Source: a virus (taxonomy: Duplodnaviria; Heunggongvirae; Uroviricota; Caudoviricetes). From it: a stretch of 16,119 nt of DNA. The notes beneath the pieces are model-generated. The model did no database searches and was not told the DNA's origin. It worked only from the letters and a program-made list of their open reading frames with translations. Each line of letters begins with the position of its first letter. Positions within the stretch are counted from its first letter, which is position 1. The stretch is taken from IMG/VR virus record IMGVR_UViG_2526164619_000006, positions 1 through 16,119 of that record; one strand, given 5' to 3'. The translations under genes were made by a program, and so were the position numbers. Of the stretch, positions 10,193 through 16,119 are shown one piece after another.

Positions 10193-10879
10193 ATGACCCC
10201 AATAAAAATATTTATGACTATTGCTGATTTCAAACGGCCTAAATTGGAGCTCCCAAACGGGGCAAACAAACTACTACTGCACTCTTGCTGTGCTCCATGT
10301 TCCGGTGAAGTGATGGAGGCGCTTCAGGCCTCGGGAATCGACTACACCATCTTTTTCTACAACCCGAACATTCATCCTCAGAAAGAGTATTTAATTCGTA
10401 AGGATGAAAATATTCGCTTTGCTGAACAACACGGCGTGCCGTTTATCGATGCTGATTACGACACAGACAACTGGTTTGAACGAGCCAAAGGAATGGAATG
10501 GGAGCCCGAACGAGGGATCCGTTGCACCATGTGTTTTGACATGCGTTTTGAGCGGACAGCGCTGTACGCCGCTGAAAATGGTTTCAGTGTGATCAGCAGT
10601 TCACTGGGCATTTCACGCTGGAAAAATATGCAGCAGGTTAACGAGTGTGGGCGGCGAGCTGTTGCGCATTATCCGGGTATGGTGTACTGGGATTATAACT
10701 GGCGCAAGCAGGGCGGCTCGTCCCGTATGATTGAAATCAGCAAGCGCGAAAAATTCTATCAGCAGGAATATTGTGGCTGTGTGTATTCTCTGCGCGATAC
10801 CAATCTACACCGCAAATCTCAGGGACGCCCTCTTATCAAAATTGGCCAACTCCACTACGGAAAAGAAGAGAAGGAGTGA
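10193..10879 (+). CDS. queH: DUF208 / QueH-like protein (epoxyqueuosine reductase family)
   Basis: Intact 228-aa ORF with [36 protein letters not shown] and EYCGCVYS, which I recognise as the conserved QueH signature motifs. An extended -10-like TGcTACACT lies at 10171..10179. Confidence 0.7.
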
Positions 10880-10989
10880 TTTTATGGATCACCTTTCTGA
10901 TTGATTTCATATTGGCGAGGTGACGTGAGTTAAGTAGAATGGCTGCGTGAACCGCCCCGGGTTTCCTGGAGAGTGTTTTATCTGTGAAC

Positions 10990-11872
<883 letters not shown>

Positions 11873-11876
<4 letters not shown>

Positions 11877-12199
11877 TTTTTCCAGAGGCGGTCGAACTCC
11901 GCCTTCGCAAAATAAGCGGAAGCCTGGCGAAGGATATCGTTACTGCGGCGCAGTTCACGATTTTCACGCTCCAGCTCTTTCAGACGCTGACGTTCAGCGG
12001 TGGTGAGCCCGCCATCACCGCCTCCGGTATCCCGCTCATGCTGGCGTACCCAGACACGCAGAGTCTCCGGTGTACAGCCAATTTTTGGGGCAATGGAACA
12101 AATTGCCGCCCACTGTGAGTCATATTCGCCCTGACTTTCCAGAACCATACGAATCGCCCTCTGACGGACTTCGGGGGAAAAACGAGTATTTTTAGTCAT
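11873..12199 (-). CDS. IS629-like OrfA
   Basis: 108-aa [44 protein letters not shown].. Confidence 0.85.
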
Positions 12200-12425
12200 C
12201 CTGTTTACCTCTTTCTCAGGGAGTTTAGTCTCCAGGATTCCCGGGGCGGTTCAGCGGGTGCTTGAGGCTATCTGTCTCAGGCATGAACACTGAAAGGCAG
12301 ATAGAGAAAAGCCCCAGTTAACATTTCGCGTCCTGCAAGACGCTTAACATTAATCTGAGGCCCAATCTATGTCTCACAAATGTAGATTAGCCTCTTACGT
12401 GCCGAAAGGCAAGGGGAAGCAGGCT

Positions 12426-12581
12426 ATGAAGCAGCAAAAGGCGATGTTAATCGCCCTGATCGTCATCTGTTTAACCGTCATAGTGACGGCACTGGTAACG
12501 AGGAAAGACCTCTGCGAGGTACGAATCCGAACCGGCCAGACGGAGGTCGCTGTCTTCACAGCTTACGAACCTGAGGAGTAA
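12426..12581 (+). CDS. hok: Hok/Gef-family membrane toxin (51 aa)
   Basis: MKQQKAMLIALIVICLTVIVTALVTRKDLCEVRIRTGQTEVAVFTAYEPEE: single transmembrane helix plus the conserved Cys and C-terminal region of Hok/Gef/RelF-type toxins. Track ORF 12369..12581 adds an in-frame upstream extension (possibly mok-like). Confidence 0.8.
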   Translation: MKQQKAMLIALIVICLTVIVTALVTRKDLCEVRIRTGQTEVAVFTAYEPEE

Positions 12582-12651
12582 GAGACCCGGCGAGGGAGAA
12601 AACCCTCGCCACCTCTGATGAATCAGGCATCCTCAACGCACCCGCACTTAA

Positions 12652-12676
12652 CCCGCTTCGGCGGGTTTTGTTTTTT
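12652..12676 (+). terminator. Rho-independent terminator downstream of hok
   Basis: cccgcttcggcggg GC-rich hairpin followed by ttttgtttttt. Confidence 0.6.
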
Positions 12677-12748
12677 CCTGGCATTCTGGTTTACAATTCG
12701 CACGTCAGCCTGAACAACTGGCACCTGCTGCGCCAGCAGAGAAAGACG

Positions 12749-13027
12749 ATGGCGCACAATACCAAATCACACAATTCTGATAATTCAGCTGTCTTTGCCA
12801 GCAGGCACGGGCGGCGTTCCCGCACATTCAAATCTGATTGGTACCATCATTCCCCATGTACTGAAGAACAAGCTGAATGGCTAATTCAGTGCTACCGCAG
12901 ACACGGATACGAGATTAAGAAAGCCCTCAGCCTCGATTATCGTCACTGGATAATCTCCGTCAGGCTTCCTTACTCTGAACGCCCACCGCGTCCGTCCCGC
13001 ACATTCCAGCAACGCATCTGGAGGTAA
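12749..13027 (+). CDS. Small basic hypothetical protein (92 aa)
   Basis: ATG 12749, in frame within track ORF 12668..13027, whose 5' part overlaps the hok terminator. Sits between hok and the DUF968 gene. Confidence 0.4.
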   Translation: MAHNTKSHNSDNSAVFASRHGRRSRTFKSDWYHHSPCTEEQAEWLIQCYRRHGYEIKKALSLDYRHWIISVRLPYSERPPRPSRTFQQRIWR

Positions 13028-13028
13028 C

Positions 13029-14084
13029 GTGCGGGTATTACTTCGACCTGTTCTGGTACCGGAACTCGGGCTGGTGATCGTTAAGCCGGGCTGTGAATCC
13101 ATGCCGGTATTCCACAATACCCGGGTACTGGTGGAGCCGGAACCGAAAAGCATGCGTAATCTGTCGTCCGGGGTCGTTCCTGCCGTTCGCCAGCCGCTGG
13201 CGGAGGATAAATCATTACTGCCATTTTTCAGCGACGAACGAGTGATTCGTGCTGCTGGTGGCGCTGGCGCATTGTCTGACTGGTTACTGCGCCATATTAA
13301 ATCCTGCCAGTGGCCACACGGCGATTATCACCACAGTGAAACCGTCATTCACCGTTATGGTACCGGCGCAATGGTGTTGTGCTGGCACTGCGACAACCAG
13401 CTGCGCGACCAGACCTCCGAATCACTCGGGCAACTTGCTCACCAAAACCTGTCTGCATGGATGATTGACGTCATACGCCATGCAATGAATGGCTCGCAGG
13501 AACGGGAATTATCGCTGGCTGAATTATCCTGGTGGGCGGTCCGCAATCAGGTGGCGGACGCGCTACCGGAAGCGGTATTACGTCGTTCGCTGGGGTTGCG
13601 TGCGGAAAAAATCCGCTCAATGTACCGTGAAAGCGACATCGTACCGGGAGAGCAGATCGCCACCAGCATACTGAAGCAGCGCACAAAAAATCTTGCGCCG
13701 CTGCCTCACGCCCACCAGCAAAACCCGCCACAGGAAAAGACGGTGGTCAGCATTGCCGTTGATCCGGAGTCACCGGCTCAGTATCTCCAGCGCCAGAAAT
13801 CACAACGGGAAGAGATGCCTGTATACACGCGCTGGGTAAAAACGCAGAAATGCATGACGTGTGGCAATCAGGCAGATGATCCGCATCACATCATTGGTCA
13901 TGGACTGGGAGGGATGGGAACAAAGGCTGATGATTTGTTTGTTATTCCGCTGTGCCGTAAATGCCATAGCGAACTACACGCCGGGGTAAAAGATTTTGAA
14001 GAAAAACACGGCAGCCAGCTGTTGTTGCTGATTCGTTTTTTAATGCACGCGAGAAATTCGGGTGTTCTGAAGTGGAAAGCATAA
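13029..14084 (+). CDS. DUF968 (YdfU-like) prophage protein with C-terminal HNH-like Cys/His motif
   Basis: 351-aa ORF, GTG start with GGAGG RBS 4 nt upstream. C-terminal CMTCGNQADDPHHIIGHG..CRKCHSELH. Size and context match my recollection of Qin-prophage YdfU. Confidence 0.65.
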   Translation: MRVLLRPVLVPELGLVIVKPGCESMPVFHNTRVLVEPEPKSMRNLSSGVVPAVRQPLAEDKSLLPFFSDERVIRAAGGAGALSDWLLRHIKSCQWPHGDYHHSETVIHRYGTGAMVLCWHCDNQLRDQTSESLGQLAHQNLSAWMIDVIRHAMNGSQERELSLAELSWWAVRNQVADALPEAVLRRSLGLRAEKIRSMYRESDIVPGEQIATSILKQRTKNLAPLPHAHQQNPPQEKTVVSIAVDPESPAQYLQRQKSQREEMPVYTRWVKTQKCMTCGNQADDPHHIIGHGLGGMGTKADDLFVIPLCRKCHSELHAGVKDFEEKHGSQLLLLIRFLMHARNSGVLKWKA

Positions 14085-14450
14085 ATGACTGAACGCATAG
14101 AATTTGTTTTGCCTTACCCGCCAACGGTGAACACTTACTGGCGACGTCGTGGCAGCACATATTTTGTATCAAAAGTCGGTGAGCGTTATCGCCGTGATGT
14201 GGCGCTTATTGTTCGCCAGCAGCAACTGAAATTAAACCTGTCCGGAAGGCCGGCAATAGAAATTATTGCAGATCCACCGGATAAGCGCCGTCGTGACCTG
14301 GACAATATCCTGAAGGCACCACTGGATGTACTGACGCATGCGGGGCTGCTCATAGACGACGAGCAGTTTGATGAAATTAATATTGTGCGCGGTCAGCTTG
14401 TTCCTGGTGGGCGGTTGGGGATAAAAATCACAGAACTGGAGTACGCATGA
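14085..14450 (+). CDS. rusA: RusA-family Holliday junction resolvase
   Basis: 121 aa with LPYPPTVNTYWRRRG .. DKRRRDLDNILKAPLDVLTHAGLLIDDEQ .. GGRLGIKITELE, matching the RusA pattern. The start overlaps the upstream stop (TAAATG). Confidence 0.85.
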   Translation: MTERIEFVLPYPPTVNTYWRRRGSTYFVSKVGERYRRDVALIVRQQQLKLNLSGRPAIEIIADPPDKRRRDLDNILKAPLDVLTHAGLLIDDEQFDEINIVRGQLVPGGRLGIKITELEYA

Positions 14451-15136
14451 ATAACCAGTATTTACAGTTTGTTCGTGAGCAACTCATGATTGCCACCGCC
14501 GATTTGAGTGGATCAACAAAAGGGCAGCTTGAGGCCTGGCAGGAGAATGCCATGTTTGATACAGGGCGTTACAGGCGTAAAAAAATCCGGTACCGCGATG
14601 AAGTGACTGGAAAAATGATAACGCGGGATAATCCACCAATCCCGGGAAAGCAATCGCTGGCGAAGGGGGCGTCAATTCCTCTCGTCAGTCCGGTTGAGTT
14701 TTCGACATCATCGTGGCGGCGGGCTGTTCTGTCTCTTGAAGAACATTATAAAGCCTGGTTGTTGTGGTGTTACAGCGGGAGTATTTGTTGGGAATATCAG
14801 ATCGCGATAACGCAGTGGGTGTGGAATGAATTTAAAACCCGGTACGGCACCAGAAAAATTGCAGGGAAAACGCAGGAGCGCGTGAAGAAGTTGATCTGGC
14901 TGGCGGCACAGGATGTCAGAGGATGGATTACCGGGTGTGAGGTCTACCAGAGACAGGAGCTTGCCAGACTGTGTGGAGTTAAGCCTGATAACTGGAGCCA
15001 TAATTATGCGAACTACTGGCGTGAGATGTGCGATATTTTTAAGAGTCTCGATAGAGAATCTGTGATTTGCACCGTGAAAATAAGAGCGCAACAAAAAGCG
15101 ACTTTTTCACGACGAGATATTGCAAAAGTCAATTAA
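14447..15136 (+). CDS. Putative late-gene antiterminator (Q-like), assigned mainly by position and size
   Basis: 229-aa Cys-rich ORF immediately after rusA (ATGA overlap), followed by a promoter-like element and terminator. No similarity to lambda Q or the short 82-type Q that I can confirm from memory. Confidence 0.4.
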   Translation: MNNQYLQFVREQLMIATADLSGSTKGQLEAWQENAMFDTGRYRRKKIRYRDEVTGKMITRDNPPIPGKQSLAKGASIPLVSPVEFSTSSWRRAVLSLEEHYKAWLLWCYSGSICWEYQIAITQWVWNEFKTRYGTRKIAGKTQERVKKLIWLAAQDVRGWITGCEVYQRQELARLCGVKPDNWSHNYANYWREMCDIFKSLDRESVICTVKIRAQQKATFSRRDIAKVN

Positions 15137-15148
15137 ATAGCGTACGTT
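15120..15148 (+). promoter_or_regulatory. Candidate sigma70 promoter at the 3' end of the Q-like gene (pR'-like)
   Basis: TTGCAA (15120..15125), 17-bp spacer, TACGTT (15143..15148). Confidence 0.25.
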
Positions 15149-15203
15149 TCGTATAAATCTGATATTTTGCCGATTTTGTACGCGATGGCAAAGTAAGAAA
15201 AAA

Positions 15204-15225
15204 CTGCCGTCAGGCGGTTTTTTTT
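15204..15225 (+). terminator. Candidate rho-independent terminator (tR'-like) downstream of Q-like gene
   Basis: ctgcc-gtca-ggcgg short stem (one G-U pair) followed by 8 T; preceded by an A-run. Confidence 0.4.
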
Positions 15226-15347
15226 ATGCCCAAAATCGCGTCAGTACAGTAAACACGCTGGTGGTTGCGAATACGGGTCTTTCAGCTTGCTGGCTTTTTC
15301 GACAAGAGTTATTGGTATGTCACGTTAACCGGAAAAAGTAAAAAGAC

Positions 15348-15545
15348 ATGCTAAAACAGCAGGATATGACAGAAACCGCCAGAGTGGTGTTTAATGAATT
15401 AAGCGTTACCGAACCGGCGACAGTCGGGGAGATAGCGCAGAATACTTACCTTTCACGCGAACGCTGCCAGTTAATACTGACCCAGCTGGTTATGGCGGGT
15501 CTGGCAGACTATCAGTTCGGTTGTTACAGACGCCTTCCGCAGTGA
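15348..15545 (+). CDS. Small hypothetical protein (65 aa), possible winged-helix DNA-binding
   Basis: Track ORF; segment TVGEIAQNTYLSRERCQLILTQLVMAGL resembles an HTH recognition region. Weak RBS, so the start is uncertain (alternative ATG 15366). Confidence 0.35.
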   Translation: MLKQQDMTETARVVFNELSVTEPATVGEIAQNTYLSRERCQLILTQLVMAGLADYQFGCYRRLPQ

Positions 15546-15559
15546 AGGCTTTTTTATTT
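15532..15559 (+). terminator. Rho-independent terminator
   Basis: gccttc-cgcagt-gaaggc hairpin followed by ttttttattt; it overlaps the stop codon of the 15348..15545 ORF. Confidence 0.55.
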
Positions 15560-15572
15560 GTGGTAAATGGGC

Positions 15573-15603
15573 GGCTGGTGGGTGTTAGGGGCACCCACCA
15601 GCC
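15573..15603. repeat. Perfect 12-bp-stem inverted repeat (hairpin)
   Basis: ggctggtgggtg / ttagggg / cacccaccagcc. No T-tract follows on either strand. Confidence 0.6.
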
Positions 15604-15644
15604 ATCTGCTCATGCGTTGGGTTCACAAGCAAAGCTCAGGCCCA

Positions 15645-15663
15645 CTGCTTTGCGCAAAAGCAG
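15645..15663. promoter_or_regulatory. Palindrome ctgctttgcgcaaaagcag, candidate operator ~35 bp upstream of the methyltransferase start
   Basis: 7-bp arms ctgcttt/aaagcag around a gcgca centre. Confidence 0.35.
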
Positions 15664-15695
15664 AATGAGCCTATCAGAGACAGGCTTAATGATTC

Positions 15696-15920
15696 ATGCT
15701 TAATACTGTAAAAATATCCAGTTGTGAGTTAATCAACGCCGACTGCCTGGAATTTATCTGGTCGTTACCCGAAAATTCTGTTGACCTGATAGTCACGGAC
15801 CCGCCGTACTTTAAAGTGAAGCCTGAGGGCTGGGATAACCAGTGGAAGGGCGACGATGATTACCTGAAGTGGCTGGACCAGTGTCTGGCGCAGTTCTGGC
15901 GGGTGCTGAAACCTGGGTAA
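15696..15920 (+). pseudogene. Beta-class DNA methyltransferase (N6-adenine or N4-cytosine), 5' fragment truncated by IS1
   Basis: Motif IV DPPY (LIVTDPPYF) lies near the N-terminus. The ORF stops at a TAA supplied by the IS1 terminus after 73 native codons. Confidence 0.75.
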
Positions 15921-16119
15921 TGACTCCAACTTACTGATAGTGTTTTATGTTCAGATAATGCCCGATGACCTTGTCATGCAGCTCCACCGATTTTGAGAAC
16001 GACAGTGACTTCCGTCCCAGCCTTGCCAGATGTTGTCTCAGATTCAGATTATGTCGCTCAATGCGCTGAGTGTAACGCTTGCTGATAACGTGCAGCTTTC
16101 CCTTCAGGCGTGATTCATA
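15916..16119 (-). mobile_element. IS1, partial (runs off the window), inverted relative to the IS1 at 8448..9215
   Basis: Starts ggtaatgactccaacttactgatag.. and by eye is identical to the reverse complement of the insB-end of the first IS1 copy. Confidence 0.9.

Follow-up and report, generated by a model that had tools for sequence, protein, structure and literature searches.

What is the short segment that directly follows the Q-like gene of this prophage, and is it the place at which that Q protein would act? The window, by which we mean the whole stretch of 16,119 nucleotides that was analysed (IMG/VR record IMGVR_UViG_2526164619_000006, positions 1 to 16,119), had been read from its letters alone as carrying a promoter-like pair and, shortly afterwards, a hairpin with a T8 run. 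We consider that this segment very probably controls the late genes of a lambdoid prophage, as a unit of the type known from phage 82. Homology, geometry, a terminator present throughout the family and the gene context speak for an 82-type unit; what we infer is where transcription starts at the window locus, that the polymerase pauses there, and that Q binds and permits readthrough. The coordinates of all features are collected in Table 1.

Table 1. Features of the unit, its surroundings and the rest of the window
Feature	Position	Strand	Basis
Q antiterminator gene, 229 aa, phage 82 family	14447..15136	+	Pfam PF06323
-35 hexamer TTGCAA, 5/6 to consensus, within Q codons 225-227	15120..15125	+	TTGCAA in 158/167 family sites
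Spacer AAGTCAATTAAATAGCG, 17 nt, expected position of the Q-binding element	15126..15142	+	Location of the 82 Q-binding element
-10 hexamer TACGTT, 3/6 to consensus, A at position 2 and T at position 6 kept	15143..15148	+	Sequence, family counts
Inferred transcription start +1, A	15155	+	Register with GCC at +15-17 of 82 pR'
Sigma-70-dependent pause element (predicted): TG (+6,+7), TATTTT (+9..+14), GCC (+15-17)	15160..15171	+	Identity with PhiR47_2; PMC5001585
Predicted promoter-proximal pause +25/+26, T at +25, presumed Q loading site	15179..15180	+	Register with 82 pR'
First RNA hairpin UAUUUUGCC / GGCAAAGUA, +9..+41	15163..15195	+	Minimum-free-energy and centroid fold
Intrinsic terminator tR' (predicted): A6 15198-15203, core CTGCC-GTCA-GGCGG 15204-15217, T8 15218-15225	15198..15225	+	Terminator scan
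Predicted short terminated RNA, at most 71 nt (~69-71)	15155..15225	+	+1 and end of T-run
First ORF of the predicted antiterminated transcript, 65 aa, weak TrmB-like match	15348..15545	+	ORF list, profile search
5' fragment of late-operon DNA methyltransferase gene	15696..15915	+	PF01555
Phage integrase	1-918	-	
IS4 transposase	952-2298	-	
IS3-family integrase-core ORF	3912-4751	+	
IS1 transposase (internal IS1)	8697-9200		
QueH	10193-10879		
IS3-family integrase-core ORF	10990-11658	-	
ALIL frameshift pseudoknot	11802-11918	-	
hok/sok module, sok	12256-12431		

The Q gene and the motifs behind it

The product of the Q-like reading frame matched the Pfam profile PF06323 (Phage_antiter_Q) with 281.9 bits (cutoff 25; E = 4.9e-84) over profile positions 1-217 of 220, and it is 66% identical in amino acid sequence to the Q protein of phage 82, with residues 1-155 highly conserved and residues 156-229 divergent. 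This profile stands for the Q82 family, and Q proteins comprise three families that are unrelated to one another (PMC9388147). The assignment of the gene as Q is thus borne out, and the possibility that the Q-like protein belonged to an unrelated family, which the sequence-only reading had allowed for, is answered by the Pfam search, in which the product falls into the Q82 family. RusA and DUF968 genes are located upstream of Q. The last codons of Q (I-A-K-V-N-stop) extend across the -35 hexamer into the promoter spacer, where the stop codon (15134-15136) lies; PhiR47_2, an 82-like phage, shows precisely this overlap.

The pair TTGCAA / 17 nt / TACGTT can be read in the sequence exactly as it had been described, and the same holds for the hairpin and the T8 run, the hairpin core beginning 55 nt past the -10 hexamer. 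How much do such motifs mean by themselves? The pair is absent from the list returned by our promoter scan of the window: it scores 8/12, with 3/6 in the -10 hexamer, against a scan threshold of 9/12. That scan listed 15 sites against 15.2 expected. The pattern TTGCAA-N17-TANNNT is found once in the window against 0.23 expected, and at least once in 41 of 200 shuffles, and the T8 run is the sole one on either strand of the window (1 against 1.79 expected). The consensus motifs alone, the promoter pair and the T8, are no better than chance. A minus-strand promoter hit within the unit (TTGCCA / 16 nt / CAAAAT, 15191-15164) was rejected as an antisense image of the repeat that forms the first hairpin, the scan total being equal to the shuffle expectation.

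The hairpin and T-run at 15204-15225 were listed by the terminator scan. The 72-nt span 15155-15226, which comprises the predicted 71-nt RNA and one further base, folds into two hairpins with -25.6 kcal/mol (z = -4.65), and none of 200 shuffles was equally stable. The 16-mer AATCTGATATTTTGCC, which covers positions +2 to +17 of the predicted transcript, recurs together with the -35 hexamer and the spacing in over 100 prophage loci, downstream of genes of the Q82 family. Through this homology, the existence of a promoter-to-terminator unit after Q, beyond chance expectation, is confirmed at the level of sequence. When the same 16-mer was searched for in 596 Gb of genome contigs, only chance matches in unrelated taxa were obtained, the 16-mer being too short for that volume.

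Correspondence with the late promoter of phage 82

In the late promoter pR' of phage 82, a -10-like pause element with an extended -10 motif lies at +9 to +14 and is followed by GCC at +15-17, and the sigma-70-dependent pause occurs at +25/+26, with U at +25 (PMC5001585). The Q-binding element of phage 82 is located between the -35 and -10 hexamers, within the region from -31 to +30 (PMC4914094). The phage 82 record X92588 ends at the Q stop codon, and the comparison with pR' was made through PhiR47_2, which has a Q protein almost identical to that of phage 82, in combination with the published coordinates. PhiR47_2 reads TTGCAA / 17 nt / TATATT / 6 nt / AAATCTGATATTTTGCCAATGTTGT. We placed +1 at the first A of AAATCTG because the published numbering of 82 pR' fits PhiR47_2 only in this way.

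In the window, the corresponding start would be A15155, with a gap of 6 nt from the -10 hexamer, and the initial transcribed sequence from this base is AAATCTGATATTTTGCC. In this register, TG falls at 15160-15161, TATTTT at 15163-15168, GCC at 15169-15171 and the T of +25 at 15179. The window and PhiR47_2 are identical from +1 to +17 and differ at 4 positions over +1 to +36; their spacers are identical at 11 of 17 positions. Every published pause determinant of 82 pR' is reproduced, namely the extended -10-like element, the GCC, the AT-rich stretch and the U at +25. Because the hexamers chosen by the sequence-only reading yield the geometry of phage 82 pR', we regard them as the correct ones.

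The likeness to the phage 82 type therefore extends, by direct comparison or through PhiR47_2, from the Q family (PF06323), TTGCAA, the 17-nt spacer that holds the Q stop codon and the 6-nt gap to +1, through TG-n-TATTTT and GCC within the identical +1..+17 and the T at +25, to the order of a first hairpin and then an intrinsic terminator. There are also differences. The -10 hexamer is TATATT in the 82 type but TACGTT in the window, and the weak TACGTT could mean that promoter activity is low. Six of the 17 spacer positions are changed, and Q diverges over its C-terminal ~75 residues, which may mean another class of Q-to-site specificity. The terminator hairpin of the window is unrelated in sequence to that of the 82 type and shorter, with a predicted RNA of ~70 nt against ~78 nt. 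By analogy with phage 82, the 17-nt spacer is a putative Q-binding element, and a pause at +25/+26 is predicted at the window locus from the register with 82 pR'. That the Q of the window matches this site is assumed here, given a spacer that differs at six positions and a divergent C-terminal third of Q.

How would such a unit work? Sigma-70 RNA polymerase would start at a constitutive promoter formed by TTGCAA in the last Q codons and by TACGTT, at about A15155. Sigma-70 would stay on the polymerase and re-bind TG-n-TATTTT at +6 to +14, backed by the GCC at +15-17, and the complex would scrunch and pause at about +25 (T15179). Without Q, the polymerase would escape from the pause, stop at the hairpin and U8 (15204-15225) and release an RNA of ~70 nt. 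With Q, the protein would bind its DNA site in the spacer and board the paused polymerase, with NusA assisting, and the Q-modified polymerase would then read through tR' and later terminators into the late operon. The proposal that the unit may be of the lambdoid pR'/tR' kind on which Q acts, which had been put forward before these comparisons were made, is supported by the Q82 family of the protein, the 82 pR' geometry, the conserved position of the terminator and the late operon of Escherichia coli CE10 described below.

The short RNA and its terminator

The terminator hairpin with its A/U extension has a folding energy of -14.5 kcal/mol (z = -4.98), and the core alone is short, at -6.9 kcal/mol with 5 pairs, including one G-U pair. 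The A-run and the T-run make tR' symmetric and, to judge from the letters, potentially bidirectional. We noted that the lengths of the two runs vary between near-identical loci, being A6/T8 here and A8/T8 or A8/T9 in relatives (L005, L011); these differences look like homopolymer slippage, and they could tune the strength of the terminator.

The first hairpin, whose 5' arm is the pause element itself, is preserved in RNAs of the 82, PPompW and window types. The L035-type RNAs likewise have a hairpin at this position, and in the IsrJ type a different, weaker hairpin (GUCG/CGAC) takes its place; one short variant, L058, is without a first hairpin.

We considered whether the transcript might encode a leader peptide or act as an attenuator. 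The only ORF within it is ATG-GCA-AAG-TAA (15185-15196), and the 82-type sequence has no ATG at that place (ACTGGCAG); this candidate was rejected. Matches to Phe_leader (27.3 bits against 55), P26 (25.9 against 36), isrK (18.5 against 50) and other RNA models were sub-threshold and driven by the terminator.

A family of related loci

Two pattern scans of viral contigs, together with annotated phage and E. coli loci, gave a family set of 167 sites. The distance from the start of the -35 hexamer to +1 is 35 nt in 164 of the 167 sites, and the hexamer itself is TTGCAA in 158. The -10 hexamer is TATATT in 127 sites, TACATT in 19, TATGTT in 10 and TACGTT in 8. The TACGTT form is common to the window, E. 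coli CE10 and several prophage contigs; because it is shared in this way, we regard it as a lineage variant and not as a private lesion.

Beyond about +40, the sequences of the family split into unrelated modules. Nevertheless, a hairpin with a T-run is present in all 61 unique variants of the region +1 to +100, with the run ending between +51 and +78 (at +68 to +78 in 60 of the 61), and these 61 variants hold 25 distinct terminator hairpin sequences. Within the window's own terminator type, the stems CTGCC/GGCGG, CCACC/GGTGG and CCGCC/GGCGG are compensated. It is thus the position of the hairpin and T-run, and not their sequence, that is conserved, as expected for a functional tR'.

The C-terminal ~75 residues of Q82 proteins (residues 156-229; 14912-15142 in the window with the spacer included) and the adjacent 17-nt spacer fall into four or more linked types: ..IAKVN with AAGTCAATTAAATAGC, ..IAKLD with AACTGGATTAAAA, ..LAKPN with AACCGAACTGAAA and ..QQCIA with TAAATGAACTAATTAGC. 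These linked types may represent classes of Q-to-DNA specificity, although their tight physical linkage predicts the same pattern.

Relationship to IsrJ and other short phage RNAs

Are short RNAs known from homologous units? The small RNA IsrJ (Rfam RF01393), from Gifsy-type prophages of Salmonella, lies behind TTGCAAAA / 17 nt / TATATT or TACATT / 6 nt / AAATCTGATAT. IsrJ loci are often found directly behind a full-length Q82-family gene, and their hairpin and T-run end at +72 to +78. In one Salmonella IsrJ group, the spacer AAGTCAATTAAATAGCA matches that of the window at 16 of 17 positions, the window ending in ...GCG. The RNAs of IsrJ and of the window diverge in sequence after about +12. 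The window is not a member of isrJ RF01393 in the sensitive Rfam scan, in which it scored 21.4 bits at 15152-15223 on the plus strand against a gathering threshold of 37. The 5' consensus of the isrJ model, uguAaauCUGAUAuC, equals the start region of the 82 type, and the model starts 3 nt upstream of the base equivalent to +1. With 82-102 bits, the loci that an IsrJ-derived pattern retrieved are true members of this family.

IsrJ is reported to be an RNA of ~74 nt that is expressed in Salmonella and has a role in invasion (10.1101/787010). Because IsrJ shares the promoter and the initial transcribed sequence, a homologous unit yields a short terminated RNA in vivo. From this comparison, the virulence-associated small RNA IsrJ of Salmonella appears to be the short RNA of a Q82-type late promoter.

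The arrangement of Q and IsrJ varies. In a Salmonella-type prophage contig (L246), IsrJ lies directly behind a full-length Q82-family gene. In two Gifsy-1-like loci, on the contigs L268 (674-2310) and L245, the Q homologue aligns only to residue 218, and it is followed by a TTGACA / 17 nt / TATATT promoter and then by isrK, which the C4 and c4-a1b1 models for the immunity region of P1/P7 match as well. Some 800 nt further on in both, there is an 11-codon relic of the 3' end of Q (..VVIAKLD-stop), followed by a pR'-like promoter and isrJ. From these sequences, isrK-orf45-anrP looks like a cassette inserted in the end of antQ, which would have split Q from its own late promoter. We did not find an insertion of isrK-orf45-anrP into antQ stated in the papers that we consulted.

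The unit also shares its logic with the lambda 6S RNA and StxS: a constitutive late promoter is terminated just downstream in lysogens, and Q lifts the block. Both of these RNAs come from systems with other Q families, whose promoter and pause sequences are different. No Rfam family of the lambda 6S/StxS kind matched the window in the Rfam scans. With some Stx2 phages, only the terminator-plus-downstream module is common with the window. The case of StxS illustrates that an RNA by-product of pR'-tR' can become an Hfq-binding regulator (PMC7547250).

Downstream module and state of the prophage

The E. coli CE10 locus is 98.9% identical to the window over a 271-bp query, and 80% or more of this query is present in about 304 of 5426 complete E. 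coli genomes. Downstream of the unit, CE10 carries the 65-aa ORF, an intact methyltransferase gene, three tRNAs, an esterase gene and, at the end, holin and lysozyme genes; this gene set is a late operon. The 65-aa ORF is also annotated in phiP27 and Stx2 phages. In the window, only this ORF and a methyltransferase fragment are kept downstream of the unit: the methyltransferase gene, intact in CE10, is interrupted at 15916 after ~220 nt, and the late operon is thereby cut ~760 nt downstream. The sequence from 15916 (window 15916-16119) begins with the terminal repeat GGTAATGACTCCAACTTA..., which we identify as that of IS1.

From about 15200 onwards, the window belongs to a different mosaic module (terminator, leader, 65-aa ORF and methyltransferase), which recurs in phiP27 and many Stx2 phages, and there is a recombination joint just upstream of the terminator hairpin (window 15200-15350 compared with L323 1495-1650 and with L324). 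In the Stx2a phage Stx2_EH2201, the same terminator module lies behind a Q21-family Q of 126 aa (PF06530), and the promoter region there is a different one. That one terminator module stands behind two unrelated Q families fits a Q-modified polymerase that ignores terminators in general. A terminator-like hairpin, GCCTTCCGCAGTGAAGGC with T6 (stem 15532-15549), overlaps the stop codon of the 65-aa ORF, and a strong GC-rich inverted repeat without a T-run, GGCTGGTGGGTG...CACCCACCAGCC (~15573-15603), is found in the interval between this ORF and the methyltransferase gene; these two structures, within 15532-15636, may be extra terminators for a Q-modified polymerase to pass.

The host prophage is heavily degraded and carries no fewer than five insertion sequences. 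Late expression under Q control has probably been lost in this host, even should the promoter remain active, and the unit may play no role in this host, in a prophage broken by insertion sequences and with its late operon cut.

Alternative explanations

Might the segment then be a decayed relic, in which the -10 hexamer drifted from TATATT to TACGTT, initiation is slight or nil, and the hairpin with T8 merely ends an early transcript that contains Q in a defunct prophage? The 3/6 score of the -10 hexamer, the absence of the pair from the promoter-scan list, the TATATT of most relatives (127/167), and the IS4, IS3-family and IS1 insertions with the cut late operon would all suit such a decay. 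However, TACGTT, TACATT or TATGTT is found in 37 loci, including CE10 with its intact late operon, which indicates a stable lineage and not a private lesion; moreover, the most critical -10 positions (A at 2 and T at 6), five of the six -35 positions and the 17-nt spacer are kept, and the pause element is intact. We therefore consider decay of this kind quite improbable. A start elsewhere would change the reading in another way: if transcription began at about 15164 from TATAAA (15152-15157), the pause element would lie at the 5' end, Q would not be loaded, and an RNA of ~60 nt would have nothing to do with Q control. This hexamer matches the consensus at 5/6 and occurs only in the window's lineage, where relatives have ATGCAA or ATGTAA, but it has no T at position 6, its best upstream partner is poor (GTCAAT or TCAATT at 17-18 nt), and the 35-nt register that the family keeps from TTGCAA is preserved in this very lineage. 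Such a start seems very improbable to us.

The functional product could also lie on the other strand, as a small RNA like STnc370 (RF02064) that ends at the symmetric terminator read in reverse. In a search of 201 nt, this model gave a minus-strand match of 43.6 bits (E 2.4e-5) at 15192-15266, and A6-hairpin-T8 could terminate in both directions. The score, though, is below the gathering threshold of 54 and comes mostly from the terminator and the A/T runs, two pairs of the 5' hairpin are non-standard, and the gathering score was reached by no related locus. Convincing minus-strand -35/-10 hexamers were not seen upstream by eye, the promoter scan gave none there, and the neighbouring genes all lie on the plus strand. 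An antisense product is, in our opinion, hardly credible. A further possibility leaves the promoter and terminator as described and concerns only the fate of the transcript: the ~70-nt RNA of 15155-15225 might be a constitutive, Hfq-binding, trans-acting small RNA of the StxS/IsrJ kind, kept for the benefit of the host. It has a single-stranded 5' stretch, a stable first hairpin, an A-rich linker (AGU-AAG-AAA-AAA) and a U8 tail. We regard this as a tentative idea and on the whole an unlikely one, but if true, it would explain why the Q/pR'/tR' segment is intact in a prophage with at least five insertion sequences.

Implications

As an 82-type late-gene control unit, the segment would be an ordinary textbook element, of a kind already well characterised in phage 82. 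For the annotation of this prophage, its value lies in fixing where the late operon begins, which Q family is present and where Q is likely to load. With regard to the family, the late promoters of the Q82 type form a large and rigidly spaced group, among which terminators have been swapped freely between phages. The Q C-termini and spacers that vary together should provide useful material for defining the DNA specificity of Q82, a family that has been named an outstanding priority for the mechanism of antitermination (PMC9388147).
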